NCBI GenBank assembly: GCA_050250895.1 | Contig: JBFWNU010000002.1 | Span: 64,001-128,000, forward strand | Origin: Vulcanimicrobiota bacterium | GTDB lineage: Bacteria > Vulcanimicrobiota > Xenobia > Xenobiales > JADMJV01 | Reading direction: 5' to 3' | DNA length: 64,000 nt | Part shown: piece after piece, positions 5,614 through 59,904 of the stretch | Layout of the letters: every line of letters begins with the position of its first letter | Position numbering within the stretch: position 1 is the first letter of the stretch | Position numbers and translations under genes: made by a program | The notes under the pieces: generated by a model | Told to the model about the DNA's origin: nothing | The model's database searches: none | Seen by the model: only the letters and a program-made list of their open reading frames with translations

Positions 5614-6675
5614 ATGCAGATTGCAGGAGTGGGGCTAGCCTTGTACGCCCGAAGGCCGCCTCAAACTACCCGGGCCGCATCGTTAGACCAGGTATGCCTT
5701 CAGGCCGGCGAGACCCACGCCCAACGTCCCGTTTTTGCGGCACCGACTTTGCGTCCCCGTCCTGAGCCTATCCAGGTGCAGGGCGAACAACTGGCCCAGC
5801 AACTGGCTCCCACGCTGACCCGGCACACCGTCAATTATCGCTACAATTCGCTCTTGCCCATGCTCGATTTCGTCAATCACCTCAACGGCCAGCCGGCTGA
5901 ATGCACCTTCCGCCAGGGCTTCGAGAGCTATGCTCCCGACCTGGTGGGCGATATGGCCAAAGTTGGCGGCCGCTCTTGCGTGGGCATGGCCATCACCTTG
6001 CGCGACGACCTGCGGGGTCGGGGACTGCCCGCCTACATCTGTCCGGTCAGTCTCCCCGAGGCCCTCCAACACGGCAATCCGCTGGCTTTTGGCCACACCG
6101 CTGTGGTCATCCCCTTCCGCCACCAAAATGACCAGGGCTACGTCATCCTCGACCCTGGCCTGAGCATTCCCAAGCCGATCGTGGTGCGCGAAGGGCAGAC
6201 CACCAGCCTGGTCCCCTGGGAGAATTCACCTCACCCCCAGACCTGGACTTTCCAATTCGAGAGCCCTCACATGCTCAGTTGCGAGGTGCAGATTCCCAAC
6301 TCCAGTGGGGGAGGCACGAGTCGCTTCCTTATCGACCAGGAGTGGACTGACCCCGAGGCCACGCTCGGCCGTTGTGCTTCGCTCAATCCCCGCCCTCGCA
6401 TCACCGCTCGCGACGCCCGGGGTGAAACGCTGGCGGCTGTGGCCGTGGAGATGCGCCGCCCGGGCTCGGTGCGGGTGGTGGTCGAAAGCGAGGGCCGGCG
6501 CCAACGCTTTGCCTACCAGGCTGAAGACAAGTGGCAAGAAGCCATCAGTCCCGAAATTGCCCGGTTACTCTTGCCCCACTCCGCCGACCCGCGCCAGGAA
6601 CTCATCGAGGCCGTCCGGCGATGCAGCCAATCCATGCCCATCTTGCAAACCGCTATTCAGGCGGTGCTAGCTTGA
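5614..6675 (+). CDS. hypothetical protein with putative Cys-His-Asp triad (NAT/transglutaminase-like)
   Basis: GRSCVGM, FGHTAVVI and YVILDPG in triad order. Confidence 0.6.
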   Translation: MQIAGVGLALYARRPPQTTRAASLDQVCLQAGETHAQRPVFAAPTLRPRPEPIQVQGEQLAQQLAPTLTRHTVNYRYNSLLPMLDFVNHLNGQPAECTFRQGFESYAPDLVGDMAKVGGRSCVGMAITLRDDLRGRGLPAYICPVSLPEALQHGNPLAFGHTAVVIPFRHQNDQGYVILDPGLSIPKPIVVREGQTTSLVPWENSPHPQTWTFQFESPHMLSCEVQIPNSSGGGTSRFLIDQEWTDPEATLGRCASLNPRPRITARDARGETLAAVAVEMRRPGSVRVVVESEGRRQRFAYQAEDKWQEAISPEIARLLLPHSADPRQELIEAVRRCSQSMPILQTAIQAVLA

Positions 6676-6734
6676 ACGTCCGTGTCCCTGGCCAGCCTGC
6701 CGCTGCTGGCTGGCCCCGACGGCCGCTACCACCT

Positions 6735-6773
6735 TTTCCACAACCTTTAAGCACGCGCTGTTAGCCTGTTGCT
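6735..6773 (+). promoter_or_regulatory. heptamer direct repeat plus -10 element, leaderless promoter
   Basis: TTTCCAC-aacc-TTTAAGC-N9-TAGCCT-N6-ATG. Confidence 0.6.
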
Positions 6774-7970
6774 ATGCAGGTCCAAGCCAACCGTCGGTCC
6801 ATTTCCATCGATCAGGCCTCGCGCGTTCTCTCGCGCCAGCCCGACCCTGGCACGCGCCAGGGCGACCGTGTCACCCTGGGCGGCGGCAGCCTGGCCAGCC
6901 CGGCTCTTGTGCCCGACGGAGTTTGCCACGCCTCGGGCCGGCGACTGAGTTGCTACGACCGCAACGGGCAGGTGCGCTGGCGTGAAGACTTCTCCACCCC
7001 GGTCTCGGCCGTGGGCGCGGACGCCCAGGGGCGCACCTTCGTGTGCAGCGACGACGGTCACCTCCACGGCCTTGGCCCCGACGGCCAGCAACTTTTCGCC
7101 CCCATCCAGGTCGATGCCGACAGCGGCCACGCTCCGGCGGTGGCCCCGGACGGGACTGTCTATATCGTCACTCGTGGCACGCGCCTCGAGGCTTACACCC
7201 CCGAGGGCGAGCAAAAGTTCTCGAAAGACTTGCGCAAAACCAGTCTGCGTTCGCTCCTCGGCCTCGAGAATCGCCATCAGTATAGCTCCACTCCCACCCT
7301 TACCAGCGATGGCAAAGCGGTAGTCGCAGACGAGCGAAACTACGTCACCGCTTTCGACTCCTCCGGCAAGAGAAGCTGGACCTATCGTTTGCCCCAGCAG
7401 GTGATGACCGGTATCAGCGCCGGCCCGGACGGGCGCGTGGGCCTGGGCATCTATCTCGACGAAATGATCGTGCTCAATCACAAAGGCAAGGTCGAGACTC
7501 GAGTCGACGCCCAGGGGCCGTGTGTGTCCACCGGAGTAGCCGTGGCCGCCAACGGAGATTTGGTGGCTGGCGACTCCTCTGGCATCCTGGCCGCCTACGA
7601 CCGCAAAGGCATCCGCAAGTGGACCATCCGCAATGACCACAAATTTACCGGCACACCCACGTTCCAGAAGGGGCACCTCTACGCCACCACCTGGTTCGGC
7701 AAGTTTTATGACATCGACGCCGCCACCGGGAAAGTCGCCTTCTCCACCGACCTGGGTGGCGGCCAGTTGTCGATGTCGTCTCCCGTGGTCGACGAGGAGG
7801 GGACGGCTTACATCAGCCTGGTGAACGGTCTGGTGGCCCTGCGCACCCAGACAAAAGAAGTCGACTCCAGCCTCGACCCCCACGAACCCGTCAAGCCAGC
7901 CGCTCTCGAGTTGCAAGAAGACGACGGCTGGCTGGTGGTGGGCGACCAGCAACTCTCGATCAACTACTAG
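6774..7970 (+). CDS. PQQ-like beta-propeller repeat protein
   Basis: Repeated blades (PAVAPDGTVY, AFDSSGKRSW, AYDRKGIRKW, SSPVVDEEGTAY). Confidence 0.85.
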   Translation: MQVQANRRSISIDQASRVLSRQPDPGTRQGDRVTLGGGSLASPALVPDGVCHASGRRLSCYDRNGQVRWREDFSTPVSAVGADAQGRTFVCSDDGHLHGLGPDGQQLFAPIQVDADSGHAPAVAPDGTVYIVTRGTRLEAYTPEGEQKFSKDLRKTSLRSLLGLENRHQYSSTPTLTSDGKAVVADERNYVTAFDSSGKRSWTYRLPQQVMTGISAGPDGRVGLGIYLDEMIVLNHKGKVETRVDAQGPCVSTGVAVAANGDLVAGDSSGILAAYDRKGIRKWTIRNDHKFTGTPTFQKGHLYATTWFGKFYDIDAATGKVAFSTDLGGGQLSMSSPVVDEEGTAYISLVNGLVALRTQTKEVDSSLDPHEPVKPAALELQEDDGWLVVGDQQLSINY

Positions 7971-9032: not shown

Positions 9033-10310
9033 TTACTCCGCGGGCAACCTGAAGTAGAAGCGGGTAGGGCTTCCTTCGGCGCTCTCGACCCCCACCTGGC
9101 CGCCGTGACGCTCGACCACCAGCTTGCAGAAGGTCAGTCCCAACCCGGTGGTGCGGTGTTCTCTTTGTGCTTGCGAGAACTTGTCGAAGATCCTCGCCTG
9201 CTCGGCTGAGGGCACTCCTGGTCCCCGGTCGATGACGCTCACCTCGAGCAGGTCGCCCCCCGACCGCGTCACCACTCGCACCGGTTCTTCCTCGGGGCTA
9301 AAGCGCAGGGCGTTGGTTAGAAGGTTGCCCAGTACCCGCGTCATCAGGTCCCGGTCGCAGCGCAGCCTGGCCTGATCGCCCTCGATCACCACCCGCGAGC
9401 GGCCCGGCCCCACCCGCTCTAGCGCCTGGCTCACCAGCTGGTCGACTCCCGTGTCTTGATAGGCCAGCGGCATCTGGTCTGACTCGAGCCGGCTCACGTC
9501 GAGAATGGTCTCGATCATCTCGGCCATCACCCCGGTGAGGCTCTGGATCTTGCTGACCATTTCTTGTCCTCGCCGCGACAACTCTTGCGATTCCTCGAGG
9601 TAGTGAGCGTAGAATACCACACTGGTCAGCGGCGTCCGCAGGTCGTGAACCATCATGTGGGTCAGACTGTCGCGCAGGGCTTCTAAGCGCCGCAGCGACT
9701 CGTAGTTTTCTTCGAGCTGCTGCCCCAGTCGCTGGGTCCTGACGAAGAGCCTGCCCAACAAACGTACCCCCCGCTCGGACCCCAGCAGATACAGCACGCC
9801 GCCCAGCCCGAGGATGCGGTGGAAAGGCTGGGCCGAGAGCAAAAATGACAGGAACATCGGCCCTATCAGGCCGAGCACCGCCAGTCGGACGATGGTCGGA
9901 TGAAGGGCGTAGGTCGAGCTGGTGCCCGCCGTGATCAATAGCACGCAAGCAAATAGGTACACTCGCGTGGTCAGGTCCGTCCCGGCCAAAAGCACCAGCG
10001 AGCCCAGCCCCCACCACAGGGCCACCGCTACGATGGTCCCACCCAGGGCCAACTCCCACTGTCGCACCCGGGCATCGTCTAGCTCACCCTGAGGAAAGCG
10101 CTTGAGCACCGCCCCACGAACAAAGGCCAGGGTCATCATCACTGCGTTCCAGACGACCAGCTTCCACCACGGCACGATGCCCACCAGGCCGGCGCTCACC
10201 AGCAAAGCCCCCAGGGGGCTCAAGACGACGTTGAGGGCCGACTGCAGACAGACAAACCGCACCCGCTCGGCGCGCACTCTTCGAGCTAGCTCGACTTCGA
10301 ACTCGGACAT
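9033..10310 (-). CDS. membrane sensor histidine kinase
   Basis: About six TM helices; H-box HDLRTPLT, N-box NLLTNALRF, G-boxes DRGPG and GLGL; start placed at MSEFEV. Confidence 0.9.
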   Translation of the reverse strand: MSEFEVELARRVRAERVRFVCLQSALNVVLSPLGALLVSAGLVGIVPWWKLVVWNAVMMTLAFVRGAVLKRFPQGELDDARVRQWELALGGTIVAVALWWGLGSLVLLAGTDLTTRVYLFACVLLITAGTSSTYALHPTIVRLAVLGLIGPMFLSFLLSAQPFHRILGLGGVLYLLGSERGVRLLGRLFVRTQRLGQQLEENYESLRRLEALRDSLTHMMVHDLRTPLTSVVFYAHYLEESQELSRRGQEMVSKIQSLTGVMAEMIETILDVSRLESDQMPLAYQDTGVDQLVSQALERVGPGRSRVVIEGDQARLRCDRDLMTRVLGNLLTNALRFSPEEEPVRVVTRSGGDLLEVSVIDRGPGVPSAEQARIFDKFSQAQREHRTTGLGLTFCKLVVERHGGQVGVESAEGSPTRFYFRLPAE

Positions 10311-10748: not shown

Positions 10749-11846
10749 ATGTTGGTCGGTCCACATCTACCCGTCCACCGGCCCGGTCTGGTCCAGCGCA
10801 GCCTCGAGGCGATGGGCGGCGTGGCCGGAGCTACCGTCGAGTTGATGAACTCGGTAGGTCCGTCGGTCGTCACCGGCGCGGTGGCGGCCCTGCAGGTCGG
10901 TCGGGCCAGCGAAGAGGAGCGGGCGAAAATCTCGACTCGAGCGCTCGAGATCACCATGGTTGGCCAACTCTTGCTGGGGCTCGGAGTCTACGCCGTCAGC
11001 CACGCTAGCCTGGTCGGACTGGCCACGGCCGCCGCCACCAAAGGCGTCTTCGGCGGAGCCTGGACCAAGCTGTATAGCGAGAGCGGCGCCAGCAGCCGCA
11101 TCGCCGAAGGCCTGCGCCACCGCGTCGAAGCCGTGGTCACGCCCGCAGACGACACCGGCGAGCGGCTCATCAAAGGGGTGGCCGTCGGACTGGCCGCCGG
11201 CCTGATCGGGTCGGCCAGGGTCGGCTACAAAGAAGGCAAAGGCGCCGTCGGAGGCACCATCGACGCGGTCAAGCGCCTGCCCGCGACTCTGGCCACCCGG
11301 GTCAAGAATCTCGCCACCACCCGGGGATGGTCAAGCCCCGCCCGCATCGCCACCGGTCTGGTCACCGGCAGCGTCGGAGCCGCCCTGTGCGCGGGTATCG
11401 GTCTGGCCCAAGGTTTTACCGACGCCCTGGGCGACAAGATGGACGCTGCCAAGCACCGCCGCTGGCTGACCCTCGAAGGCGCCCTGGCCGGAGCCGCTAC
11501 CGGCCTGCTCCTGGGCGGAGCTCCCGGTCTGGCCGTGGGCAGCGTGCTCGGACTGGCCGCCACCTCTCTGGTTGCCCGAGTTGAATCGCGCCACGACCTC
11601 GACCGCCAGATCACCGCCGACATTCAGGCCCAGCTCGACGAGGTCAAGCGCACCACCTATCAGGAGGGCGACCAGGTCGCCGATACCTACCGCCGCGCCC
11701 TGCAAGGCCTCTCGGTCGGCTTGGCGGCCGGGGTCGAGGCCGGCTTCAACCGCTTTGCCGAACTCGCTCAATCCAAGCCCGAACCCGGCTCGCCGGTGGG
11801 CAAGCAGGTCCAGGACCTGGCCGAACTCGGCCGTCCCCGGGACTAG
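10749..11846 (+). CDS. Gly/Ala-rich hydrophobic-helix protein with two tandem copies of a domain
   Basis: GxxxG-rich helices; TAAGCT-N6-ATG upstream. Confidence 0.7.
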   Translation: MLVGPHLPVHRPGLVQRSLEAMGGVAGATVELMNSVGPSVVTGAVAALQVGRASEEERAKISTRALEITMVGQLLLGLGVYAVSHASLVGLATAAATKGVFGGAWTKLYSESGASSRIAEGLRHRVEAVVTPADDTGERLIKGVAVGLAAGLIGSARVGYKEGKGAVGGTIDAVKRLPATLATRVKNLATTRGWSSPARIATGLVTGSVGAALCAGIGLAQGFTDALGDKMDAAKHRRWLTLEGALAGAATGLLLGGAPGLAVGSVLGLAATSLVARVESRHDLDRQITADIQAQLDEVKRTTYQEGDQVADTYRRALQGLSVGLAAGVEAGFNRFAELAQSKPEPGSPVGKQVQDLAELGRPRD

Positions 11847-17305: not shown

Positions 17306-17719
17306 CTACTTTGTGAGCGAGGTCGCAACCGGCTCGTCGGCCAGCATCAGCTTGAGAATGGCCGCCGCTGCCGCCCGCGGCGAGGCACGGACCGTCTGGT
17401 GGAGATCCGGGCCCGAGCCTATGTGGGCTCGGAAGGCATCCAGAGCCCGCTGGCGCGTCCCGCTGTCGATCACCGGCAGCTGAGCAATGCACATGGTGAC
17501 CTGCTGGACCACTTCCGGGGTCAGCTGAGAGAAGAGTTCGGCCGAGGTCTCGGGAGGCAGGTTCATCAGCACGATGGCCGCTTGTTGAGTTCCGGGGCCT
17601 GCCGGCGCCGACGAGTTTGGAACGGGCAGTGGAAGCGCGTTCTTGCGATTGAGACGATAGCCGACGAAGGCCGACCAGGCGACCCCACCGGCGAATCCGA
17701 GCAAAACTTCGAGTAGCAT
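17306..17719 (-). CDS. membrane-anchored protein with FliG-like armadillo motif
   Basis: N-terminal TM; QQAAIVLMNLPPETSAELFSQLTPEVVQQVTMCIAQL. Confidence 0.65.
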   Translation of the reverse strand: MLLEVLLGFAGGVAWSAFVGYRLNRKNALPLPVPNSSAPAGPGTQQAAIVLMNLPPETSAELFSQLTPEVVQQVTMCIAQLPVIDSGTRQRALDAFRAHIGSGPDLHQTVRASPRAAAAAILKLMLADEPVATSLTK

Positions 17720-17801: not shown

Positions 17802-18701
17802 TCAGGCGGCTCTGGCCAACCAGCGCCGGAGCCGACCCAGGACCGTCTTGGGAGGGGCTTGGATGGCGTGCCGGCGGGGGCGCAACACGCGCTTGAAAGC
17901 GTCGTCGAGATCCTCGGCCCAGGCCAGTCTGGCCAGATGCAGGTCGGCCGAACCGGGGAGCGCCGCGACGGTGTCGAGCAGGCCGCGGGCACGTTCGGGC
18001 CTCATGGTGGCCAATTGCGTCAACAGCCCGAGCAAACTGTCCGCTGAACTCACGCCCTCACGCAACAGACGGGCGTAGAGTCGATACGCGGCCAGGCAGA
18101 CCATCGGACTCAGCTCGGCAGGCAGCACGGTCAGAAAGCCACTCAAGCGGGCAGCCGCCGAGGTTCTGCCGATGGGACGGCCGATCGCCTCGGCCAGGGC
18201 TACGGCCGCGACCGGTTCGAAGTGGCTCAGCAGTTCGACCACCAGACCCGGCTGATGGCCCCGAGCCAGATATTCCAGCACCACTTCAAACTGGTCAAGA
18301 GGCTCGACCGCCCGCCAACAGGCTCTGAGCACCGTCAGCGCGTGGTGGTGAGAGTAGCCGGCCTCGATCAGCCCCCACATGGCTCGATAATACGGCAGAG
18401 GAGCATGCTTGGCGTAGCGGCGGGGTGAGTCCGGACCGTTCACGAGCACTCCGGTCTGCTCGAGCCAGGCCAGTTGTCGCTCCAGACCGGCCACCCCCAC
18501 GCGGTGACACATCTCCTCGAGCAGAGCGGTGGCCACCTCCGGCACGAGGCCATACTCGGTAAGGCGGGCGAGCACTCGCTCGGCAGTCTCGGGCAAACGA
18601 TGCTTGCGCAAATAGCTGGCCAGCTGCGAGCACTCATAGGGCCACAGCCCACCACGAAGAGCCGCTCGAATCACTTGAAACCCGGTTGATTGTGTCTGCA
18701 T
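17802..18701 (-). CDS. helical hypothetical protein
   Basis: Long ORF; GGAGGT RBS before MQTQ. Confidence 0.7.
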   Translation of the reverse strand: MQTQSTGFQVIRAALRGGLWPYECSQLASYLRKHRLPETAERVLARLTEYGLVPEVATALLEEMCHRVGVAGLERQLAWLEQTGVLVNGPDSPRRYAKHAPLPYYRAMWGLIEAGYSHHHALTVLRACWRAVEPLDQFEVVLEYLARGHQPGLVVELLSHFEPVAAVALAEAIGRPIGRTSAAARLSGFLTVLPAELSPMVCLAAYRLYARLLREGVSSADSLLGLLTQLATMRPERARGLLDTVAALPGSADLHLARLAWAEDLDDAFKRVLRPRRHAIQAPPKTVLGRLRRWLARAA

Positions 18702-18942: not shown

Positions 18943-19497
18943 CTATGCCTGCTGGGTGGGGTCTCCCTTGAGATAGCTATAGCCCGTGGCCGGTTCCGCC
19001 GCCGCGGGCGCGGGCGCTGGCGCTGGCGCCGGCGCGGGAGCGGGTTGGGGCCCCGGAGTGCTGGGGGCAAGCACGACGACCACGGGCACGGGGATCGGCC
19101 GCCCCCGACCACGATAGCCTTGATTGCCGTTGTTCGGCGTTTGCTCGGGCCCCGCGGCCGGCTCGGCTGCTGGGGCCTCGGCGGCGGGGGGCTCGGCTGA
19201 GGTTGGGGCCTCGGCGGGCGGCTTCAAAGAGTTCAACTGGGTGTCGAGCCAGTATCTGCGGTCCAACACTTGAGGCTTGTCGGCCCCCGAGAAGTCCTGC
19301 CAACCCCCGCTCATTTGCGAATAAGCTTCCAGGTATTCTCGCCTCTCTTCGGGGGACAACGCACCCAGAGGGTTGTCGGATGAGGGGTCCTGAACGGCCG
19401 TAGACGTACCTGCCGAGAGAGCCTGTTCGGCCATATCGCGCACAGGCGAGGGGGCGGACCAAGAACTGTTTACGTTCGAATATTGTGTGTTGAGCAT
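18943..19497 (-). CDS. Pro/Ala-rich, probably disordered hypothetical protein
   Basis: GGAGGT RBS before MLNTQY; PAPAPAP tracts. Confidence 0.7.
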   Translation of the reverse strand: MLNTQYSNVNSSWSAPSPVRDMAEQALSAGTSTAVQDPSSDNPLGALSPEERREYLEAYSQMSGGWQDFSGADKPQVLDRRYWLDTQLNSLKPPAEAPTSAEPPAAEAPAAEPAAGPEQTPNNGNQGYRGRGRPIPVPVVVVLAPSTPGPQPAPAPAPAPAPAPAAAEPATGYSYLKGDPTQQA

Positions 19498-21293: not shown

Positions 21294-22001
21294 GTGCAGG
21301 TTAGAAGTTTCCATCCCGGTCCCCACGTGCAGCTTGCCGCTGCCCCGCCCAGGTCGCCCAGGACCGAGGACCTGTTTGCTCCCCAGCCCCCCGAGCCTCC
21401 CCCTCGCGAGCGCATGAACATCGGCGGGGCGGTCGGGCTGTCGGCCTTCATCGCGGCTTCGGCCGCGGCCGGCGGAGCCGCCGGAGTGGGGGCCATGGTT
21501 TGGTCCGGCTGGCCCGGCCTGGCGGCCGGGGCGGCCATGGGCGGCCTGGGGGGAGTCACGGCCGGCTGGCTGGCTACCAAAGGTGCTCTCTACGGCCTGA
21601 CCAAAGTCACCGGCCGGGAGCCCTCCGACCAGCTCAAAAAATGGGCCCACCGCCTCACCTTCGCCGCCTGCCTGGCCGGGGGAGCGGCGGCCGGCTATGC
21701 GGCCATTCCCGCCAACGGGGGCAGTGGCTTCTGGATGGTAGCCAGCATGGTCTGTGGTGTGGCTGGCGGCCTTTGTTGGGGTCAAGAGCTGATCTTCGGC
21801 AATGTCTTCGACGACAACCAGCTGGTGGGCTACCGCAATCGCGAGGCTCAACGCCAGTTCGAGCAACAGACCCGAGAGTACGAGGAAGAACTCGCCCGCT
21901 TTCGGGCCGAGCTGGTGCCACCCGGTCAGGAAGTCTCGCTCGAAGAAAACGACGAATCGCTGGTCGTCGGCGACGTCACGCTGCCCCGCCAGACCTCCTG
22001 A
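21294..22001 (+). CDS. glycine-zipper membrane-helix protein with conserved C-terminal tail
   Basis: Four Gly-rich hydrophobic helices, a coiled coil and tail EENDESLVVGDVTLPR; AGGAG RBS. Confidence 0.75.
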   Translation: MQVRSFHPGPHVQLAAAPPRSPRTEDLFAPQPPEPPPRERMNIGGAVGLSAFIAASAAAGGAAGVGAMVWSGWPGLAAGAAMGGLGGVTAGWLATKGALYGLTKVTGREPSDQLKKWAHRLTFAACLAGGAAAGYAAIPANGGSGFWMVASMVCGVAGGLCWGQELIFGNVFDDNQLVGYRNREAQRQFEQQTREYEEELARFRAELVPPGQEVSLEENDESLVVGDVTLPRQTS

Positions 22002-22197: not shown

Positions 22198-23109
22198 CTA
22201 TTGCTGTTGCTCCTGCGCTCCTACCACGCGCACGCGCTCGAAACCGTCAAGCTTGATCAAGTTGCCGCCCTCGCCCTGGGTGAAGAGCACCTCTCCCTGC
22301 TCATTGACCACGGTCACGGCCTTGTCACCGGCGCGAATCACGGCCACGTCGTGGTCGCCCTGCCCGCCCGAAAGACGCACCTGGTCCTCGCCCCGGCTGG
22401 CTCTAAAGACCACTCGGTCGTCACCCACGCCGCCGCGCACGCGGGTCGTGTCCGAGCCCAGACCCCCGCTGGCGCGCAAGACATCGTCTCCGCGGCCTCC
22501 CCGGACCACCTGACGGTCGGCTCCCTGACCTCCGCGGGCGATGGTTTCGTCGTTGCCTTGACCACCGCGCACCAGTTGCCGATCATTGCCCTCCTGGCCG
22601 CGGGCCAGTTCGAAGTCGTTGCCCTGGCCGCCGCGGATGACCTGGCGGTCACCACCACGTCCGCCCTCCTGGGCCAACACGTCGTTGCCCTGGTGGCCGC
22701 GGGCCTTCTGCACGTCACGGCCGGCGTGGGCCCGCTGGAAGCGGACATCGCGATGCTCGCCACCGTCGAAAATCTGGCGGTCGCGCAGGGGGTGCTCGAC
22801 GGGCGGCTGGGGGTTGGGCAGACTCGAGCCCGGATAGTAGTCGGTGAAGGTGAAGTAGGGGTCGATGGGAGTGGGCGAGACCGGCTGGCCGGCGAAGCCA
22901 CCGAATCCCTGGGCCAGTTGGGTCAGGCTCTCGAGCAGGCTGACCAGCATCTGAGCCGGTCCCTGGGCCGGGGGAAACTGGCGGACGTCCTGGTTTCCGA
23001 CGATGCTCCAGATGTTCTGGTAGGCATTCTGGTTGGCCGTCAGGTTGTTACGGAAGGACATCTGGGTGGAAACGGGGTCCTGATTGAAAGTGAAGGGTGA
23101 AATCGCCAT
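22198..23109 (-). CDS. RTX-like Gly/Asp repeat (putative Ca-binding beta-roll) protein
   Basis: About 13 GGxGxD-type repeats at 11-residue period; start placed at MAISPF after a GGAGAG RBS. Confidence 0.8.
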   Translation of the reverse strand: MAISPFTFNQDPVSTQMSFRNNLTANQNAYQNIWSIVGNQDVRQFPPAQGPAQMLVSLLESLTQLAQGFGGFAGQPVSPTPIDPYFTFTDYYPGSSLPNPQPPVEHPLRDRQIFDGGEHRDVRFQRAHAGRDVQKARGHQGNDVLAQEGGRGGDRQVIRGGQGNDFELARGQEGNDRQLVRGGQGNDETIARGGQGADRQVVRGGRGDDVLRASGGLGSDTTRVRGGVGDDRVVFRASRGEDQVRLSGGQGDHDVAVIRAGDKAVTVVNEQGEVLFTQGEGGNLIKLDGFERVRVVGAQEQQQ

Positions 23110-43211: not shown

Positions 43212-43799
43212 GTGATTCAACCCTGTACTCTCACAACCCCCACCCCCACCCCCCGGCGCGCCTCGGCGCCGCCGCCCACATCCGAGGGGCTGGGTGACTG
43301 CTTTGAAAAGGCGGCCCGCTGGGTGGCCGGCAAAGTGGTCGGAGTGGTCTTCGGCACCAGCGGTCTGGTGGCCAACGCCGCCGCTGGCGGTGCCCGCGGC
43401 ACCCTGCACGCGGCCCGGGTCGAAAGTAACCACCAGGAACTTCTATTTCAGGCCGGCATGACGGCCAACATGGCCGCCCTGGGCGCCCTCGGCGGCGGTC
43501 CCGCCGGAGCTGTCCTGGGCGTGGCCGGTGGCCACCTGCTGTGGCGAATTCAGGGCGAGAAAGTGCGCGAGCGCGTGCTCACCAAGTCGGACCAGTGGGT
43601 CGACAAGGTGCTCGAGAAACTGCCCGGCGACCCCGACCAGGCCGGCCGCCTCAGAAGAGTGGCTAACGGCGTGGTGGGTGAGGTGGTCGGCACGGCCGCC
43701 GGAGCCGTCGGCGGCACCTTCGCCATGTTCGAGCAAGGCGAGCAATACGGCCAGTCGCTGTTTGACGAAATGACCGGCAAAGAGCCTCCCCAGGGCTAA
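43212..43799 (+). CDS. glycine-zipper hydrophobic-helix protein
   Basis: GGAGG RBS; GxxxG-rich helices; resembles each half of 10749..11846. Confidence 0.75.
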   Translation: MIQPCTLTTPTPTPRRASAPPPTSEGLGDCFEKAARWVAGKVVGVVFGTSGLVANAAAGGARGTLHAARVESNHQELLFQAGMTANMAALGALGGGPAGAVLGVAGGHLLWRIQGEKVRERVLTKSDQWVDKVLEKLPGDPDQAGRLRRVANGVVGEVVGTAAGAVGGTFAMFEQGEQYGQSLFDEMTGKEPPQG

Positions 43800-50969: not shown

Positions 50970-51000
50970 CCCGATAACCGTTCCATCACGGTTTCATAAC
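50970..51000 (-). promoter_or_regulatory. 11-bp-period triple repeat, putative OmpR-family box
   Basis: Minus strand GTTATGAAA-cc-GTGATGGAA-cg-GTTATCGGG upstream of the vWA-RR-HK operon. Confidence 0.5.
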
Positions 51001-51091: not shown

Positions 51092-52138
51092 ATGATTAGC
51101 CAGGTAGCCCATTCCAGGTCTGTGACCAGAACGCAGTTGCGCGCTCAGCCGGCCTCCAGGCCCGACCCCAGCGGGGCCAGAGATAGGGTCACACTGTCGC
51201 CATACCAAGCCGCCGATACCGTTCCCGACGGACCGCGTCCCGCCCCGGCCACACCGAGCCAGACCCAGTATGGGCCCGCTCCTGGCGGCCCGGCTCGAGG
51301 ATTGGTGGGGGAACCGAGCAGCAAATGGAGCGCCCCCGATGCGCACGGCTTAAGATCCCGCACGCTGCATTCAGCCGACGGGAAAGAAGGCTGGTATCAG
51401 TGGAAGTCCCCGGGCCAGCGGCGCGATTACTTTAGCCGGAGCTACAAAGACAAGGGACGCGAGTTCTACGAAGTCCTCAAGGGCAACCAGCACAGTCGCA
51501 TGCAGCTGCTCGGCCAGGCCTTCCGCAATGCCAAACGCGAAGGCTCGGTGCGCCTCACCGACAAGCAAGGCAAAGACCTCGGAGTCGAGGTCCACGGCAA
51601 ACTCACTCCCGCCCAACAAGACCAGCTTCGCAAGGCGATCCAGGATTTGCCCCCGGCCCTGCGCAAATACGCGCGCTCGATCGCTGTGGTCGACAACCTG
51701 GGCCAGCAGGGAACCCGCCACAACGGGCACACCCGCTGGGAATCTCACACTCTCGGCAAAACCGATAGCAAAGGCCGGATCGCCCTCGACCGTCGTCTGC
51801 TCAAAGACCCGAAGAAGCTCTTCGAGACGCTTGCCCACGAGGCCGGTCACGGACTGCAGGTCGACAAGGCGCGCAAGCTCGGCCCCGAGTGGGGCAAGAA
51901 GAGCGTCTCTGGCTATGGCAACACCGACCCCTACGAAGATTATGCCGAGACTGTGGCCTATGTGGCCAAGAACTGGAAAAGCCTGGTCAATGGTGGCCAC
52001 GGAGGCCTCTTGCGCACCGCCGGACAGCCCATCCCCGGCGCCGGACAACGCTCCTCAGACATCACTCGGCGCCCTTCGGCAACCAAGATTCTGCAAGTTC
52101 TCCGGGCCATGGGCTGGCAATCGAGCGGGCAGAATTAG
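51092..52138 (+). CDS. HEXXH zincin-like metallopeptidase, paralog 1
   Basis: LAHEAGH...SVSGYGNTDPYEDYAE. Confidence 0.8.
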   Translation: MISQVAHSRSVTRTQLRAQPASRPDPSGARDRVTLSPYQAADTVPDGPRPAPATPSQTQYGPAPGGPARGLVGEPSSKWSAPDAHGLRSRTLHSADGKEGWYQWKSPGQRRDYFSRSYKDKGREFYEVLKGNQHSRMQLLGQAFRNAKREGSVRLTDKQGKDLGVEVHGKLTPAQQDQLRKAIQDLPPALRKYARSIAVVDNLGQQGTRHNGHTRWESHTLGKTDSKGRIALDRRLLKDPKKLFETLAHEAGHGLQVDKARKLGPEWGKKSVSGYGNTDPYEDYAETVAYVAKNWKSLVNGGHGGLLRTAGQPIPGAGQRSSDITRRPSATKILQVLRAMGWQSSGQN

Positions 52139-55572: not shown

Positions 55573-56838
55573 ATGGCCTTGACCATCGCGCTGATGACCC
55601 TGGGCACCCGGGGTGACGTGGCTCCCATGCTGGCTCTCGGACAGGCGTTGAAAGCCCGTGGCCACCGCGTTCGCCTGGCGGGTCCTGACGACGCGGGCGA
55701 GTGGGTTCGCTCGCACGGCTTCGAGTTTCACAGCCTGGGCTTTGACATCGAGGCTTTCCTCCAATCACCCGCAGTCAAAGAGAAGCTCTCTGGCGGACCG
55801 CTGGCGCTGGCTCGTATCTGGTGGCGCGACGTGCTACCCACCGCTCACCGCATGTTCCGGGCTATCGGCAGGGCCGCCGAAGGCTGCGATGTCATCGTCA
55901 GCCATCCCAAAGTGGTCGGCTCCCACGATGCCGCGGTGGCCAACCGGGCGCTTTATCTGCGAGCCCACTTTCTGCCGCTGACCCCGACCCACCACTTTCC
56001 GCCCCCCGTCTTCACTCGCGAACTGGGCTATTTGAACCGGCCACTCTACCAGCTGTTCCGGCTTTCGCGGTTGCCCTACCTGAACCAGTTGAACGCCTGG
56101 CGCCATGAGCTGGGACTGCCCCCCGGACCATGGTTTGATTCGCTCAGCCATCCCAGTCTTTGCGCCGTTTCACCGGCCGTGCTACCCCGGCCCTCCGACT
56201 GGCCCGACCAGCACTTCATGACCGGCTACTGGTTCTTCGACGACCCGGCCGAGTGGCAGCCTGACCCTGCTCTGGCCGATTTTCTGGGGGCCGGCGAGCC
56301 GCCCATCTATATTGGCTTCGGCTCGATGACCAGCCAGAATCCGCAAGAACTCTCGCAACGGGTGGTCGAGGCGGTGCGCCTGGCCGATTGCCGGGCCGTG
56401 CTGGGCCTGGGCTGGGGAGCCCTCGATCACTGTAATGACGAGCGCGTACACGCTCTGAAATCAGCGCCTCATCACGCGCTCTTCCCACTGTGTTTGGCCG
56501 TGGTCCATCACGGCGGGGCGGGCACGACCGCTCAGGGCTTGCGAGCCGGGCTGCCTACCTTGATTTGCCCCTTCTTCGCCGACCAGCCCTTCTGGGGGCA
56601 ACGGGTCCTCCAGAAAGGCTGCGGACCCATCCCGCTCTCGCTCGAGGGCGCATCGGCTGAGCAATTGGCGGGTCGTCTCAAAGAACTCGCCAACCCCGAC
56701 TATCGCCGTTCGGCCGAGTTCGTGGCGGGGGAGTTGGCAAAGGAAGATGGTCCGGGCAAAGCCGCCGCCATCATCGAAGCCATGGCCGCTCAGTCAGGAA
56801 AGGGAGAAAAGGCTTTGCAGAGGGGGTTCCAGAGGTAG
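55573..56838 (+). CDS. GT1 glycosyltransferase (sterol glucosyltransferase-like)
   Basis: GTRGDVAP, YIGFGSM, VHHGGAGTT, PFFADQPFW. Confidence 0.93.
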   Translation: MALTIALMTLGTRGDVAPMLALGQALKARGHRVRLAGPDDAGEWVRSHGFEFHSLGFDIEAFLQSPAVKEKLSGGPLALARIWWRDVLPTAHRMFRAIGRAAEGCDVIVSHPKVVGSHDAAVANRALYLRAHFLPLTPTHHFPPPVFTRELGYLNRPLYQLFRLSRLPYLNQLNAWRHELGLPPGPWFDSLSHPSLCAVSPAVLPRPSDWPDQHFMTGYWFFDDPAEWQPDPALADFLGAGEPPIYIGFGSMTSQNPQELSQRVVEAVRLADCRAVLGLGWGALDHCNDERVHALKSAPHHALFPLCLAVVHHGGAGTTAQGLRAGLPTLICPFFADQPFWGQRVLQKGCGPIPLSLEGASAEQLAGRLKELANPDYRRSAEFVAGELAKEDGPGKAAAIIEAMAAQSGKGEKALQRGFQR

Positions 56839-57215
56839 CCGGCGGCTGCGCCGGCCAGGGCCGCCCCGCCTGGTCCACCCGCGAAAGCCGCCGCGCCGAC
56901 GCCGACACCCACGGCCGCCCCTAGCAGGGTTTTGCCCAGCACTTCACCGGTCACCAGCACGGGATCGGTCTGGCGAGAAAAGGCTCCCACTGCCCCACCC
57001 AGTCCACCGAAGACGGCGCCTCCGATGAAGGCGCTGGTGAGCAGGTCCCCGCCGGCCAGGGCCACGCCGATTCCAGCCGCCGCGCCTACCACCGCCGTCA
57101 CTTTGCTGGCCATCGAACCCGAGGGCTTGAAGGAGTCGACAGGAGCGTTGTCTGGTACCGAGGCGCGCCGCGTTATTGGAGGGGAATAGGAGCGTGAAAA
57201 CCCGTTGATGACCAT
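56790..57215 (-). CDS. small glycine-zipper hydrophobic-helix protein
   Basis: GxxxG-rich helices after a polar leader. Confidence 0.7.
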   Translation of the reverse strand: MVINGFSRSYSPPITRRASVPDNAPVDSFKPSGSMASKVTAVVGAAAGIGVALAGGDLLTSAFIGGAVFGGLGGAVGAFSRQTDPVLVTGEVLGKTLLGAAVGVGVGAAAFAGGPGGAALAGAAAGYLWNPLCKAFSPFPD

Positions 57216-57254
57216 GACCCAAGTCTAGGCCAGGGCGTTGAAAGATTCTTGAAA
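57216..57254 (-). promoter_or_regulatory. heptamer direct repeat plus -10 element, leaderless promoter
   Basis: TTTCAAG-aatc-TTTCAAC-N9-TAGACT-N6-ATG on the minus strand. Confidence 0.65.
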
Positions 57255-57255
57255 T

Positions 57256-59904
57256 CTAGTGAGCGCCGCGACGGCGATAAACCAGCACCCCACCGGCGGG
57301 CAGGTCGAGTTGGGGGCGGGGACCGTGCAGTTGCTCGGGCACGGGCTGGCCTGAGCCGCCAAAGCGCGCGTCGTCGGAGTTAAGCACTAGATCCCAGTGG
57401 CCGTCGAGTTGCAGGCCGTAGCCGTCGAGGCGCTGGTGGTTGAGCGAGCCCACCACCAGATACTCGTCACCGCGAGTGAAGGCCATCACTGAGGCATCGT
57501 CGTTGCAGTGCACCTGGCGGGCCTCCGAGTCTGCCCGCAGAGCCGGGCTGGAATTGCGCAGGTGGATGACCTCGCGGGCGAAGGCGTGATGGTGGGCGCG
57601 CGGCCCGTCGGCCGGCCACTCCCAGCCCACATCCCAGGTCGAAGGGATGCCCCAGCGAAAGGTGTTGGTCGCTAGCGACTCGTCACCCTGGAAAAAGATG
57701 GGCACGCCCGGGCTCAGCATGCCGACGCCAAAAGTCAGGCGCGAGGCCGCCCGGGCCCAGACATCGGGCTCGCCGTCGCCGCTGGCCACTTTGATGGTCC
57801 GCTCGGCGTTGCCCACTTCGTCGTGATTCGAGACCACCGTCACCGAGTTGGCCGAACTCAGAAAGCCGGGGTGCCCGGTCAGGTGGTCCATAAACTTCTG
57901 CATACGAGTGGGGCCGTGGTGGGCTGCCTCTTGCAGCACCGAGGGATTGTGGTGGTCAAAGACCAGGCGGTGTTGAAACTCGGTGTTCCACATGGCGTCG
58001 AAGCCCGCTCCACCCTGGCCATTGGGGCCCACCGGTGTGACCACGATGGGATGGTTGGGAAACTCCTCGGCGGCCATGAAAGCGTCCGGATGGAAGAAAT
58101 CGACCTCGCGGTTGATGCGCCGGAGCATCTCCCAGCCGACCGTTCCTCCGCCGCCATTCTGGTCGTGGATGGGATGGGTAAAGTCCAGGCGCAGGCCGTC
58201 AAAGTGCAGCTCGTCGAGTTGGGCCAGGGCGTGGTCGGTAATAAACTGTCTTACCGGTTCTTTGTCATAGGCGGGCAGCGGCCCCCAGGGGGTAAAGCGC
58301 AGGCCGCCCTGCGACCACGAAAACCAGGGATTGTTCTTGCCATCGCTCTGCCACGAATCGTTGAACTCGCCTCCGAAGTGATTGTAGACCACGTCGTTGA
58401 GCACTCGGAAGCCGCGACCGTGAGCCTCGTCGATGAACCGCTGCAGGGCCTCGAGCCCGCTGACCCAGCGGCCGTCCGAATCCTCGAAGCCGTACTGCTC
58501 GCTGGTGGCCAGAGTGTTGCTACCGATATAGCCCCAGTCGCGCGAGCCCTCGAAGCTGCCGGTCGGCAAGAACTCGAGGGTGTTCACTCCCAGATCCTGG
58601 AAGTAATCCAGCCGCTTTTGCACATCTTCAAAGGTGGTGCGGTCCGTGTTCTTAGCCTGGCCGAAGACCGACCCGACGTGCATCTGATAGATGACCATCT
58701 CGTTGGCGTTCTTAGCCGTGCGAGCCACCTGGTCGTTCTTCCAGTCGAAGCTTGCGTCGCTGAGAATGCCTAGCCTGGGCCAGCGATGGCGGCCGTCGAG
58801 CCGCGCCGAATAGGGGTCGTTAAAGTTCGTCTCTTTGGCCTCTTCGGCCGATAATTGGCCGTCAGCGTTGGCATCGCCCACCAATCGGCCGGCCTGGATC
58901 ATCTCGAAGCGATAGTCGAGACCCTCGAGCCCGGCAGGCAGGGTGGCGGCCCAGGCCTCGCCCTGACGCAGCAGGTGGATGCGGCCGTCGGGTTGGACGT
59001 TCTCGAGCCAAAAGTCATTGGCCTCACGACCGTGAAAGCGACCGACCAGCTGCGAACCACCCTCGCCCAGTCGGGCCAGCAGGCGGCTCTTGTCGAGCAC
59101 GCCCTGTTCATCGCGCAAGGTCAGGGTGACGGTGTCGGCCTGGCCCTGCACTTCAAAGCGCGTGAAGCGCACCGCTCCTTTGATGAACTGGTGAACCTCC
59201 TGTCCGCTGTTGGGGTCGAGATAGAGATCGGCCAGACCGCGCTGGGGGCCCTGGCGTCGCCGCGCGTAGGGGTCCACCCGCAACACCCGCTCGCCTTCGC
59301 TGGTGGTCACCTCGAAGCCGTAGGCCTTGCCCTCGAGGTGGTCCCAGGAGCCGGCTCTACCGCTCCAGTGGCCATCGGCTTGGCGCACCATCGGAAAGCG
59401 CTCGACGCCGTTGCCGGTGACAAAAACGCCATCCACCTGGCGGGCGTTGGGAGCCCAGTAGTCCAGGTCCACGCTGTCCCCTTCGCGGTGGGCACCGCGT
59501 GACTTCAGGGTGGTGGGGGAGTAGGTGGCCTCGGCCTCGTCGCCCAGGCGCAGATTGCCCTCTTCAAAGACCGCCCATCTGCCGTCAGCCACCACGCCCC
59601 ACTCCCAGGGCTTCTGGCCGGGAGCCAGGGCCACCTCGGCCGTCCAACGACCTTGCTCGTCCTGGCGCATCGGCACGGCCGAGTCTTTCCACTCTCGATT
59701 ATAGTTGCCCCCCGCGTCCCACGATCCGAGCAGCGTCACGCCATGCAATTGCCGACCGTCGCCGTCGAAGACGAACTTCACCCGACGGGCGCCCTCGGGT
59801 TCCGTTCGCAGGCGGGCTCCCAGGTGGACCCGTTGGCCATTGGTGGGCACCACGAATTCATCCGCGGGTTTGGATCCGGCAAAGCGAAGAGGTTGGACCT
59901 TCAT
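57256..59904 (-). CDS. GH13 alpha-amylase-family enzyme (branching enzyme/TreZ-like) with CBM48-like N-terminal modules
   Basis: WAPNA, DPY, IYQMHVG, DVVYNH, FDGLRLD, AEE, NHDE, VLNSDD. Confidence 0.9.
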   Translation of the reverse strand: MKVQPLRFAGSKPADEFVVPTNGQRVHLGARLRTEPEGARRVKFVFDGDGRQLHGVTLLGSWDAGGNYNREWKDSAVPMRQDEQGRWTAEVALAPGQKPWEWGVVADGRWAVFEEGNLRLGDEAEATYSPTTLKSRGAHREGDSVDLDYWAPNARQVDGVFVTGNGVERFPMVRQADGHWSGRAGSWDHLEGKAYGFEVTTSEGERVLRVDPYARRRQGPQRGLADLYLDPNSGQEVHQFIKGAVRFTRFEVQGQADTVTLTLRDEQGVLDKSRLLARLGEGGSQLVGRFHGREANDFWLENVQPDGRIHLLRQGEAWAATLPAGLEGLDYRFEMIQAGRLVGDANADGQLSAEEAKETNFNDPYSARLDGRHRWPRLGILSDASFDWKNDQVARTAKNANEMVIYQMHVGSVFGQAKNTDRTTFEDVQKRLDYFQDLGVNTLEFLPTGSFEGSRDWGYIGSNTLATSEQYGFEDSDGRWVSGLEALQRFIDEAHGRGFRVLNDVVYNHFGGEFNDSWQSDGKNNPWFSWSQGGLRFTPWGPLPAYDKEPVRQFITDHALAQLDELHFDGLRLDFTHPIHDQNGGGGTVGWEMLRRINREVDFFHPDAFMAAEEFPNHPIVVTPVGPNGQGGAGFDAMWNTEFQHRLVFDHHNPSVLQEAAHHGPTRMQKFMDHLTGHPGFLSSANSVTVVSNHDEVGNAERTIKVASGDGEPDVWARAASRLTFGVGMLSPGVPIFFQGDESLATNTFRWGIPSTWDVGWEWPADGPRAHHHAFAREVIHLRNSSPALRADSEARQVHCNDDASVMAFTRGDEYLVVGSLNHQRLDGYGLQLDGHWDLVLNSDDARFGGSGQPVPEQLHGPRPQLDLPAGGVLVYRRRGAH

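Follow-up and report, generated by a model that had tools for sequence, protein, structure and literature searches.

Seven genes in a 64-kb stretch of Ca. Eremiobacterota/Vulcanimicrobiota DNA (the window) encode unrelated proteins with a similar hydrophilic N-terminus, and we questioned whether these leaders could mark a common set of exported substrates. The original prediction had placed a D-x-[VF] motif in all seven and read it as a type III or flagellar-like export signal. All seven open reading frames and the peptides quoted from them were confirmed at their coordinates, with 56790 (start 57215) and 57256 (start 59904) on the minus strand and GTG start codons in 21294 and 43212. We curated 53 window proteins (18,331 residues), comprising 20 housekeeping proteins, 21 Sec/TM proteins, the seven named genes and five further non-Sec orphans. 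The genes discussed below are the following.

5614..6675, plus strand: arylamine-N-acetyltransferase-like Cys-His-Asp enzyme; M-Q-I start, hydrophilic leader of ~55 residues
6774..7970, plus strand: BamB/PQQ-type beta-propeller; M-Q-V start, Sec signal absent
10749..11846, plus strand: helical protein of glycine-zipper-like type; starts M-L-V, lacks D-x-V and has a -10 hexamer 6 nt ahead of its ATG
17306..17719, minus strand: membrane anchor plus FliG N-terminal-like domain (Pfam FliG_N, E 9e-13; TIGR00207 partial)
17802..18701, minus strand: orphan non-Sec protein; 11-bp repeat pair upstream (2 mismatches), weak candidate member
18943..19497, minus strand: orphan Pro/Ala-rich non-Sec protein; GTTCA repeats of 11-bp period upstream, candidate member
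21294..22001, plus strand: glycine-zipper-like membrane-helix protein; GTG start (M-Q-V), Pro-rich leader
22198..23109, minus strand: calcium-binding/RTX-like repeat protein; M-A-I start, TTACA repeat pair upstream, candidate member
43212..43799, plus strand: glycine-zipper-like helical protein; GTG start, Thr/Pro-rich leader
51092..52138, plus strand: HExxH zincin-like protein; residues 1-70 unmodelled
56790..57215, minus strand: small glycine-zipper-like protein; M-V-I start, D-S-F-K-P-S at residues 27-32
57256..59904, minus strand: predicted GH13/CBM48 alpha-glucan-active enzyme with catalytic motifs present; short-leader clade M-[KN]-[IV], conserved D-x-V absent
60073..61359, plus strand: 51092 paralog (67% identity across 297 residues); its Ser/Pro/Ala leader of ~130 residues is unlike that of 51092

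The absence of a hydrophobic signal from all seven was borne out (0/7): in a simple window test, the 9-residue Kyte-Doolittle maximum reached 0.23-1.98, against a mean of 2.94 in the 21 Sec/TM genes. By hydropathy and composition, the seven genes show the hydrophilic start without a Sec/Tat peptide that is looked for in type III substrates. The cargo assignments were upheld as well. The Cys-His-Asp enzyme 5614 keeps its Cys/His/Asp set in both homologs and has a predicted fold resembling arylamine-N-acetyltransferase (TM 0.60-0.66); 6774 is a propeller whose residues 1-28, modelled at low confidence, include a conserved short helix; the zincin-like 51092 has HEAGH and a sub-threshold Peptidase_Mx match; and 57256, to which 60073 lies divergently oriented, is a GH13+CBM48 protein of a subfamily distributed over Vulcanimicrobiota, myxobacteria and Blastocatellia. 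Separately, we observed that 10749 is an additional class member overlooked by the original prediction.

The motif itself fared less well. It is clearest at two sites.

6864..6881, plus strand: residues 31-36 of 6774, D-R-V-T-L-G; fits the motif but falls on the first propeller strand
51182..51199, plus strand: residues 31-36 of 51092, D-R-V-T-L-S; outside the core common to its paralog

D-R-V-T-L-[GS] starts at residue 31 in both proteins and occurs nowhere else in the 18,331 residues. The likeness of this pair, described as near-identical, is nevertheless partly coincidental and the 6774 site structural, because V33 of 6774 aligns with the propeller-repeat Trp (W in 5/8 orthologs), D31 and the PDP are poorly kept (D31 in only 2/8 orthologs, PDP missing from an 88%-identical homolog), and R32-L35 form a strand within the confident part of the AlphaFold model. 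The D-R-V-T-L-S of 51092, lying outside the paralog core, is the cleanest putative leader motif of the window. Nor is the motif common to all seven genes, since four of the named sites are unsupported: under an independent profile, those in 5614, 43212 and 57256 score at background (shuffle p 0.24, 0.77 and 0.33) and the best-scoring site of 21294 differs from the named one. The D-x-F of 57256 is gone in a 90%-identical homolog, and D-x-[VF] is found in 0/11 other short-leader GH13s. In P0081, a homolog of 5614 (about 45% identical) with an M-R-I start, a D-S-Y-Q-P-G site aligns on D25.

Counts of the loose D-x-[VF] at residues 10-45 (1/20 housekeeping, 4/21 Sec/TM, 7/7 named genes, 1/5 further non-Sec orphans) are circular for the named genes, because these were picked by the motif, and the background is 20% of random internal windows. 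A less circular grouping, with the GH13 gene shifted to housekeeping and two unannotated genes shifted to cargo, gave 7/13 cargo versus 2/19 housekeeping (p=0.015). Strict forms were present in 0/20 housekeeping proteins of the window, in keeping with the expectation that the motif is not common there. A profile trained solely on GH13 leaders of other genomes placed 51092, 56790 and 6774 first among the 53 window genes, with scores of 9.3-10.8 against 3.7 for the best housekeeping protein. The motif by itself is still not diagnostic, because ordinary genes in the loci compared, under permissive start choice, score 8-10, as high as the best members in the window.

We then asked how the leaders behave on relatives of the cargo. 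D-x-[VI]-x-[LI]-[SG] recurs on the unrelated GH13 family in other genomes, in 9/19 long leaders (0.16 expected), with exact D-x-V-x-L-[SG] in 3/19 (0.03 expected), even though 13 motif-bearing leaders are only 22% identical (19% when shuffled) versus 53% for their cores. These counts are not independent events, because GH13 leaders share descent. M-x-[IV] starts were seen in 22/32 leader-bearing GH13s versus 0/21 canonical GlgB/TreZ, 0/8 leaderless operonic GH13 paralogs coupled to an MscS gene and 0/7 control genes of the window whose -10 box lies near the start. In these comparisons, the more general leader trait is an M-x-[IV] start with ~20 hydrophilic, acid-poor residues after it, and the leader class as judged from sequence is real: non-Sec, non-housekeeping and with a hydrophilic start predicted to be disordered, the D-x-V motif being optional and weaker than claimed.

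These data bear on whether the genes share any function at all. Fast-evolving orphans with low-complexity N-termini and a motif picked by chance would fit the 20% background, the part that a propeller strand plays in the best pair and the four unsupported sites. The strict motif in divergent GH13 leaders lies far above shuffles, however, and the promoter motif described below is independent DNA evidence that held for genes outside the seed set. We consider such a chance origin highly improbable, and for the class it is already largely refuted.

The pattern TTTCA-N6-TTTCA-N11-TANNNT precedes 5614, 6774 and 56790, and a related repeat pair lies ahead of 51092.

5575..5607, plus strand: TTTCA-N6-TTTCA direct repeat (11-bp period), 11 nt and a -10-like TAGTCT; exact match, 6 nt before the 5614 ATG
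6735..6767, plus strand: promoter pattern with 2 mismatches, 6 nt before the 6774 ATG
57222..57254, minus strand: exact copy, 6 nt before the 56790 ATG
50981..50996, plus strand: 11-bp repeat pair with 1 mismatch; lies 95 nt ahead of 51092, in the stretch shared with the divergent 50949

Although the pattern was read from two window sites, those upstream of 5614 and 56790, its three window matches compare with 0.21 expected and 0/100 shuffles, each standing 6 nt ahead of a named gene; the 5614 mRNA is probably leaderless. The sole exact match in 79 loci precedes a gene of another genome encoding an M-Q-V leader, a Gly-zipper and an amylase. Repeat pairs were present upstream in 7/12 cargo versus 0/25 control regions, with spacing that peaks at period 11; once the two seed genes are set aside, 5/10 cargo regions still have one (1.2 expected, P=0.002). 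The full promoter is absent upstream of 21294, 43212, 57256, 10749 and 60073. Direct repeats of 11-bp period beside a -10 box are the arrangement of SARP/OmpR-type sites, and the box is on this evidence a putative activator site; co-regulation does not prove export.

The last point leaves room for a regulon of cytoplasmic or membrane proteins, such as a stress, dormancy or storage-granule programme, in which the leader governs intracellular targeting or turnover and nothing is exported. GH13/CBM48 enzymes are mostly cytoplasmic glycogen or trehalose enzymes, and the short-leader GH13s have just 11-26 residues ahead of the fold. We regard this as unlikely, given that the same genomes keep a leaderless operonic GH13 paralog to fill the housekeeping role (genome JASBRJ has both kinds, L001 and L059), and that Sec signals appear on cargo relatives in place of the leader: Sec-like starts mark P0050/P0052 as well as GH13 relatives from Planctomycetota, and 105/142 non-orthologous propellers begin hydrophobically versus 0/8 orthologs of 6774. 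Within cargo families, as far as sequence can tell, leader and Sec signal replace one another, or an operonic paralog does without the leader. Propellers, RTX-like repeats and the leader-Gly-zipper-amylase fusion would also better suit extracellular action. Unrelated proteins with a similar unstructured tag, several under one gene switch, suggest a coordinated set of putatively exported attack or digestion proteins.

If exported, the set might use another Sec-independent route (contractile injection, type IV/VI secretion or pilus-tip delivery), with general disorder or a C-terminal module as the true signal. Disordered N-termini also load contractile injection systems, and such a module is shared by two window genes.

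7905..7967, plus strand: C-terminal ~20-residue module of 6774, an acidic stretch and then W/S-L-V-V-G-D-x-x-L, common to 21294
about 21933-21986, plus strand: copy of this module in 21294

It is kept in 7/8 orthologs of 6774 (the eighth is truncated) and found in 1/142 other propeller matches. Many T4P/T2SS-like PilC and pilin genes are annotated in a relative, Ca. E. taraoceanii (PMC9259500), and one such cluster lies in the window. Against such a route, the module is confined in the window to these two genes and missing from every GH13 and NAT-like row, T2SS/T4P cargo normally requires a Sec/Tat signal, absent here, and the surroundings of the cargo genes showed no apparatus of this sort. 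We judge it quite unlikely.

We therefore return to type III-style export. The original expectation of a type III-like apparatus is upheld in the relative and fails within the 64-kb window: export apparatus genes were found neither in the window (Pfam, 60 ORFs) nor among 92 flanking genes of Vulcanimicrobiota-type loci, and the only flagellar/T3SS-related piece is the FliG_N-like domain (17306..17719), which is not an apparatus. Pfam likewise detected no class I chaperone beside cargo in the 60 window or 92 flanking ORFs, a search that diverged or distant ones would escape, and the terms CesT, YbjN and SycE are absent from the relative's annotation tables. In Ca. E. taraoceanii, a complete flagellar cluster is accompanied by a second flagellar-type export cluster in which filament and motor are not annotated (PMC9259500 supplement file 6), the latter known from this one MAG's tables, where many genes are unannotated. 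The second cluster keeps FlgB, FlgC, FliE, FliF, FliG and FliM/N, and its best eggNOG matches are Bacillota flagellar genes; TXSSCAN calls its FlhA T3SS_sctV and marks most of the cluster as flagellar (PMC9259500). No hook, hook-associated, flagellin or stator gene is named by Prokka in scaffold_78 genes 1-71, which include hypotheticals and gene 39, a 271-residue FlgE/F/G-family protein linked by eggNOG to a hook KO (PMC9259500). Among the TXSSCAN T3SS rows listed (29 of 36 places) in the relative's published annotation, sctC was not found. With FlgB, FlgC and FliE present, the cluster does not qualify as a classical non-flagellar T3SS as delimited in PMC3459982, nor does it match the myxobacterial needle-less T3SS*, a core without rod, FliE and FliG.

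The second cluster could instead be a remnant or a scattered second flagellum, with the leader proteins leaving by way of the usual motility flagellum. Such export has been reported for non-flagellar proteins in Campylobacter and Yersinia, and M-x-I starts resemble those of flagellar substrates. The relative's complete flagellum would serve, and extra flgG/flgJ/flgB genes lie on its other scaffolds (PMC9259500). Yet its flgE, flgK, flgL, flgH, flgI, flaB, fliD, motA and motB are single in Prokka and all on the flagellar scaffold, whereas the export core is duplicated (PMC9259500). Myxobacterial T3SS loci are without flagellar parts, and still the GH13 orthologs there have leaders. The shared promoter, which combines an activator repeat of 11-bp period and a sigma70-like -10, is also unlike the sigma28 consensus. 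Export through the motility flagellum consequently appears improbable.

The explanation we favour, and to which we give an even chance, is that the leader proteins are the co-regulated substrates of a flagellum-derived, type III-style, Sec-independent exporter. The TTTCA repeat abutting the -10 box would act as activator site for scattered stand-alone genes, many with leaderless mRNAs. Their predicted products begin M-x-[IV], continue with about 20 hydrophilic, acid-poor, S/P/T/Q/R-rich residues without a Sec signal and, in a subset, appear to carry an extra D-x-[VI/F]-x-[LI]-[SG] strand at residues 25-45. By analogy with type III substrates, the first ~20 residues may be the export signal and the strand may dock a shared chaperone or the export gate. 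The exporter would be a second, flagellum-derived apparatus like the one in the relative's genome, in which MS ring, C ring, ATPase, export gate and rod are kept. Judging by what the cargoes are and how the clade is predicted to live (this uncultured Vulcanimicrobiota group is probably predatory), the arsenal of membrane-inserting glycine zippers, zincin, Cys-His-Asp enzyme, propellers and glycogen/starch-degrading enzymes could act on prey or host cells. More tentatively, and with less than even prospects, Vulcanimicrobiota predators may have repurposed a duplicate flagellar basal body as a rod-retaining, filament-less effector exporter, independent of the classical injectisome and of myxobacterial T3SS*, that serves a genome-wide arsenal marked by a protein tag and a single activator box and perhaps hands cargo to type IV-like pili.

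To our knowledge, type III export signals are notable for having no consensus. If the proposal is true, a visible motif and matching promoter would allow an entire effector arsenal to be read off from sequence alone. The 12 candidates in 64 kb would imply several hundred per genome, and the arsenal would be rich in new antibacterial or anti-algal proteins. A flagellum-derived exporter that keeps its rod would parallel, in a living lineage, the proposed passage from flagellum to injectisome. The proposal would also offer a mechanistic basis for the predation that has been suggested in Ca. Eudoremicrobiaceae. The export idea is testable now, because the myxobacterial leader gives direct candidates for still unidentified T3SS* substrates in culturable predators.

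Among known systems, flagellar export substrates such as FlgM share a disordered N-terminus, and FlgM carries a D-x-V-x-[IL]-S-like stretch. The likeness did not extend to database families: 0/14 leader fragments matched FlgM in Pfam, 0/3 fragments and 0/19 proteins in NCBIfam, no flagellar substrate family was matched, and the leader cargo, unlike FlgM-type substrates, is non-flagellar. Type III effectors (a signal of about 20 residues plus a chaperone-binding beta-motif; PMC6114900) are alike in an uncleaved, non-hydrophobic start, a short, putatively strand-like motif in the first 100 residues and unrelated cargo. Their beta-motif is given as hydrophobic-x(1-4)-hydrophobic-x-hydrophobic (PMC6114900); the hydrophobic-x-hydrophobic-[SG] core found here follows an Asp, occurs in a subset of leaders and in 6774 coincides with a fold strand. 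The leader genes further differ from those effectors in that Pfam detected neither a class I chaperone nor an injectisome among the window and flanking ORFs. PMC10972967 describes SARP/PhoP-type activator sites as direct repeats of 11-bp period over the -35 region, alike in period and in placement just upstream of the -10, although the TTTCA unit differs from the SARP heptamers listed. Chlamydia secretes GlgA, GlgB, GlgX, GlgP and MalQ by T3SS, with the first 20 residues as signal and no Sec signal, according to PMC4829429; this is a precedent for 57256 as type III cargo, from another phylum and an intracellular pathogen with a secretin-bearing injectisome, whereas here we find a separate GH13 subfamily and a leaderless paralog. 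A further comparison is Myxococcus, whose needle-less T3SS* acts with a Kil/Tad pilus in prey lysis (PMC12075869 and PMC3459982): it is a predator with an export core lacking classical needle and secretin, pilus genes are abundant, and 57256 orthologs bear an analogous hydrophilic leader of their own, with [DS]-x-F-[ED] in 28/28 (0.48 expected). All genomes of that myxobacterial group had a T3SS locus, and their systems are without FlgB/C/D/E/K and FliE/G (PMC3459982), whereas the Eudoremicrobium cluster keeps FlgB, FlgC, FliE, FliF, FliG and FliM/N; the leader motifs also differ, D-x-V-x-[LI]-S in Vulcanimicrobiota versus [DS]-x-F-E in myxobacteria.

All seven open reading frames of the original prediction, and the peptides quoted from them, are present where they were placed in the window. 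Gene starts were curated manually for 53 genes of the window; two doubtful calls, one incomplete gene, an RHS fragment and a TrmO gene whose start was unsure were excluded. We divided the 53 into 20 housekeeping genes, 21 Sec/TM genes, the seven predicted genes and five additional non-Sec orphans. The loose D-x-[VF] pattern at residues 10-45 (background 20%) occurred in 1/20 housekeeping, 4/21 Sec/TM and 1/5 other orphan genes and in 7/7 predicted genes, the last count being circular. The strict form D-x-[VI]-x-[LI]-[SG] (background 1%) was found in 2/7 predicted genes and in 0/20, 0/21 and 0/5 of the housekeeping, Sec/TM and other orphan genes, and the Asp of the site lies at residues 25-31 in six of the seven. 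Across the 12 cargo genes (the seven plus the five orphans), S/P/T/Q/R content over residues 1-30 was higher (p=0.0002) and D/E content over residues 1-20 lower (p=0.001) than in housekeeping genes, with both biases weak in the five orphans that the prediction had not picked (p=0.02 and 0.03). When compared with Pfam, the leaders matched no family of note. Hydrophilic leaders of the M-x-I type also precede further orphans in other genomes (L001:13690, +; L042:9957, +; L057:11126, -), two with glycine-zipper-like helices after the leader.

The GH13 subfamily of 57256, a GH13/CBM48 enzyme, provided an out-of-sample test, comprising 78 proteins and 79 loci from the best 80 of 135 relatives. Among named homologs, those closest to 57256 (90% identity) and to the NAT-like enzyme 5614 (84%) come from 'Candidatus Eremiobacteraeota bacterium' MAGs, and FastTree placed 57256 inside a 51-row clade containing Vulcanimicrobiota- and Xenobia-labelled rows; Eremiobacteria, Xenobia and Eudoremicrobiia are among the classes named in PMC9758169, and the gene content suggests a class other than Eremiobacteria. 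In the GH13 tree, four loci titled Bacillota, Burkholderiales or Selenomonadaceae (L003, L041, L052, L056) cluster with Vulcanimicrobiota, three of them also by synteny, and these labels are probably wrong.

The subfamily N-termini fall into three states, namely a leader, no leader or a Sec-like signal. Among 19 long leaders of the Vulcanimicrobiota clade (20 rows, one without an anchor), nine carry D-x-[VI]-x-[LI]-[SG] where shuffles expect 0.16, three carry the exact window form D-x-V-x-L-[SG] (expected 0.03) and 13 a wider form picked post hoc from the data (expected 0.3); the long leaders are kin, so these are not 13 independent events. Mutual identity among the 13 motif-bearing leaders is 22% (19% in shuffles) and among their cores 53%, suggesting that selection has maintained the motif. 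The most general leader feature is an M-x-[IV] start, which 22 of the 32 GH13s with a leader have (one on a doubtful start), against 0/21 canonical GlgB/TreZ proteins. Leaderless initiation, which might have produced this start as a by-product, was rejected as its explanation, since none of seven control genes of that type begins M-x-[IV].

Nested within the same clade is a leaderless GH13 paralog that is coupled, in 8 of the 79 loci sampled, to an MscS gene and whose protein begins at the fold and has M-x-[IV] in 0/8 cases; leader-bearing and leaderless forms coexist in one genome. Planctomycetota relatives and the homologs P0050 and P0052 have a Sec-like signal. For the propeller 6774, the best 150 of 9,643 matches contained 8 orthologs, none with a hydrophobic start, versus 105 of 142 non-orthologous propellers.

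We then applied to the window genes a profile trained solely on the 13 motif-bearing GH13 leaders. The top three were the zincin-like 51092 (10.8), the glycine-zipper protein 56790 (9.6) and 6774 (9.3), against maxima of 3.7 for housekeeping and 7.9 for Sec/TM genes; once starts may be chosen freely, some ordinary genes in a set of 153 from the loci reach 8-10. The looser motif versions proposed for 5614, 57256 and the glycine-zipper protein 43212 drew no support from the profile, which did not rank these three above other window genes. The D-x-F of 57256 was ruled out as part of the signal, being absent from the nearest homolog, and D-x-[VF] occurs in 0/11 other short-leader GH13 members (a set of 12 rows, one without an anchor). 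A homolog of 5614 has a site almost identical to that of the unrelated 56790.

The near-identical motifs reported in 6774 and 51092 proved to lie in different settings. In 51092 the motif is N-terminal of the core common with its paralog 60073, which starts near residue 53, and falls in the unmodelled region of a low-confidence model (pLDDT 56, built on 2 sequences). The 6774 site instead sits on the fold: in the AlphaFold model residues 1-28 are unresolved and R32-L35 form a strand where confidence climbs above 80. Among the 8 orthologs from the best 150 of 9,643 matches, V33 aligns to a propeller-repeat Trp in five and D31 is conserved in two. We speculate that one strand in 6774 could serve both fold and signal. 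PDP in 6774 was rejected as part of the signal, being lost in an 88%-identical ortholog. BLASTP of 6774 against 51092 gave E 0.06, by itself not significant.

Fold searches with the low-confidence 51092 model returned only zincins at E>0.02 (anthrax lethal factor, AsaP1, fragilysin), at most a lead. Searching the ESM Atlas with residues 1-60 of 51092 produced no usable match, and PDB sequence searches with 5614 and with the 51092/60073 pair found nothing significant. The nearest ESM Atlas predicted structures to 5614 (5614-6675, +) are arthropod-labelled uncharacterised clusters (TM 0.77), nearer than bacterial arylamine N-acetyltransferases. Further along the window, 53447-54702 (+) holds an RHS-core fragment of low GC content whose C-terminal domain is divergent; a small protein with a Sec signal comes next, and by appearance the two are an orphan polymorphic toxin and immunity pair.

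Two unrelated proteins also end in a similar module of about 20 residues:

7905-7967, + strand: C-terminal module of 6774
21933-21986, + strand: C-terminal module of 21294, a glycine-zipper protein

No further gene call, in the window or the 79 loci, matches its pattern, but within the best 150 of 9,643 matches it is present in 7/8 6774 orthologs versus 1/142 other propellers. BLASTP of 6774 against 21294 gave E 0.04, by itself not significant, and Pfam held no family of note for the module, which is possibly a second targeting signal.

Upstream of 5614 and 56790 we observed an identical promoter pattern, TTTCA-N6-TTTCA-N11-TANNNT, ending 6 nt 5' of the ATG, with a two-mismatch copy upstream of 6774. 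The window holds 3 matches versus 0.21 expected (0/100 shuffles), and across the 79 loci from the best 80 of 135 relatives the sole exact match precedes an L018 gene, whose product combines an M-Q-V leader containing D-Q-V with a glycine zipper and an alpha-amylase domain; the pattern was read from 56790, 5614 and L018, so those three sites are not tests. Repeat pairs (≤2 mismatches, within 160 nt upstream) occur at 7/12 cargo genes versus 0/25 controls and, minus the two window seed genes, at 5/10 where dinucleotide shuffles expect 1.2 (P=0.002). The excess is concentrated at period 11; two of the sites are common to divergent control genes, and five cargo genes have no pair. The 11-bp period of the window's TTTCA repeat is the one that PMC10972967 describes as typical of SARP and PhoP sites, where it spans the -35 region.

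Several other non-coding features were apparent. A TANNNT box lies 6-9 nt before the start, with no Shine-Dalgarno, upstream of 5059, 17719, 44819, 46123, 50949 and 62335, and leaderless mRNAs look common in the window. A TTGAC element stands just 7 nt 5' of the -10 box upstream of 13861 and 46123, and 59905-60072, between the divergent 57256 and 60073, contains several TTAACA/TTTACA-like repeats of non-standard geometry. A similar 11-bp AATGTTAACGG tandem occupies 18767-18797, and non-coding tandem arrays lie at 15511-16397 (41-bp-based units, about 9.6 copies) and 41726-42013 (130-bp unit, 2.2 copies).

Outside the Vulcanimicrobiota clade, GH13 orthologs have other leaders. Those of myxobacteria begin M-S-x-x-[KR]-I followed by [DS]-x-F-[ED]:

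L006-L054, e.g. L007 at about 9640-12805, + strand: myxobacterial GH13 genes, distinct leader with [DS]-x-F-[ED]

This pattern, derived from the same data and from close kin, occurs in 28/28 leaders (28 of 30 loci had an intact start; 0.48 expected). Blastocatellia orthologs show a third type, M-S-x-N-R-I, rich in Asn/Gln/Thr (L004, L043, L045, L047-L049, L055); L055 is labelled Clostridia but appears Blastocatellia-like. The named myxobacterial genera belong to Cystobacterineae, and PMC3459982 reports that every Cystobacterineae genome available at the time had a T3SS locus. According to PMC12075869, T3SS*, the needle-less type III system, is required for prey lysis in Myxococcus and its effectors remain proposed; the leader-bearing GH13s are candidate T3SS* substrates in culturable predators.

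Within the window the sole flagellar-related piece is a membrane-anchored FliG_N-like protein (17306-17719, -) outside any flagellar cluster, and a search from its domain found no full-length FliG of the clade among 1,091 candidates. No export gene appeared in the flanks, where Pfam covered 92 of the 160 gene calls of Vulcanimicrobiota type, or in the other loci, where 200 cluster representatives of 518 gene calls were inspected by eye. The relative Ca. E. taraoceanii is predicted to be predatory (PMC9259500), and supplementary file 6 of that paper places a full flagellar cluster on its scaffold 18. A second cluster occupies part of scaffold 78, where genes 22-50 include flgB, flgC, fliE, fliF, fliG, fliI, a lytic transglycosylase, a FlgE/F/G-family gene, fliM, two fliN, fliP, two fliQ, fliR, flhB and flhA; in the same tables none of genes 1-71 is named hook-associated, filament or stator, and TXSSCAN calls FlhA T3SS_sctV and the other parts seen flagellar. 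Several partial FlhA matches fall outside both clusters, which, together with the 17306 protein, suggests expanded export-part paralogs. A type IV pilus/T2SS-like minor-pilin cassette at 23259-33179 (BTAD-domain response regulator, sensor kinase, pilin-like genes, PilC) is of a kind repeated many times in the Ca. E. taraoceanii tables.

Collectively, the class of leaders, the motif that some members carry, the promoter and the signal swaps are established as sequence patterns, and the class is real and under-described; titles, abstracts and passages from the literature searched on these lineages and on hook-less flagellar export yielded no account of leader, promoter or second cluster. We infer export, its route, chaperone docking and a predation role: the first ~20 residues would act as the export signal and the downstream strand, where present, would dock a chaperone. 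Co-regulated non-Sec export, whatever the route, is probable, and the chances that it runs through the second type III core are about even. As annotated, the scaffold 78 cluster differs from a classical injectisome by the criteria in PMC3459982 and from the myxobacterial type described there, which is without rod genes. By analogy the class may work like type III substrates, among which it is a candidate member. Such substrates are described in PMC6114900 as having a ~20-residue signal and then a downstream chaperone-binding strand, and Chlamydia glycogen enzymes are reported to be exported on 20-residue signals (PMC4829429); the window leaders match this two-part design as outlined there, with the strand optional.
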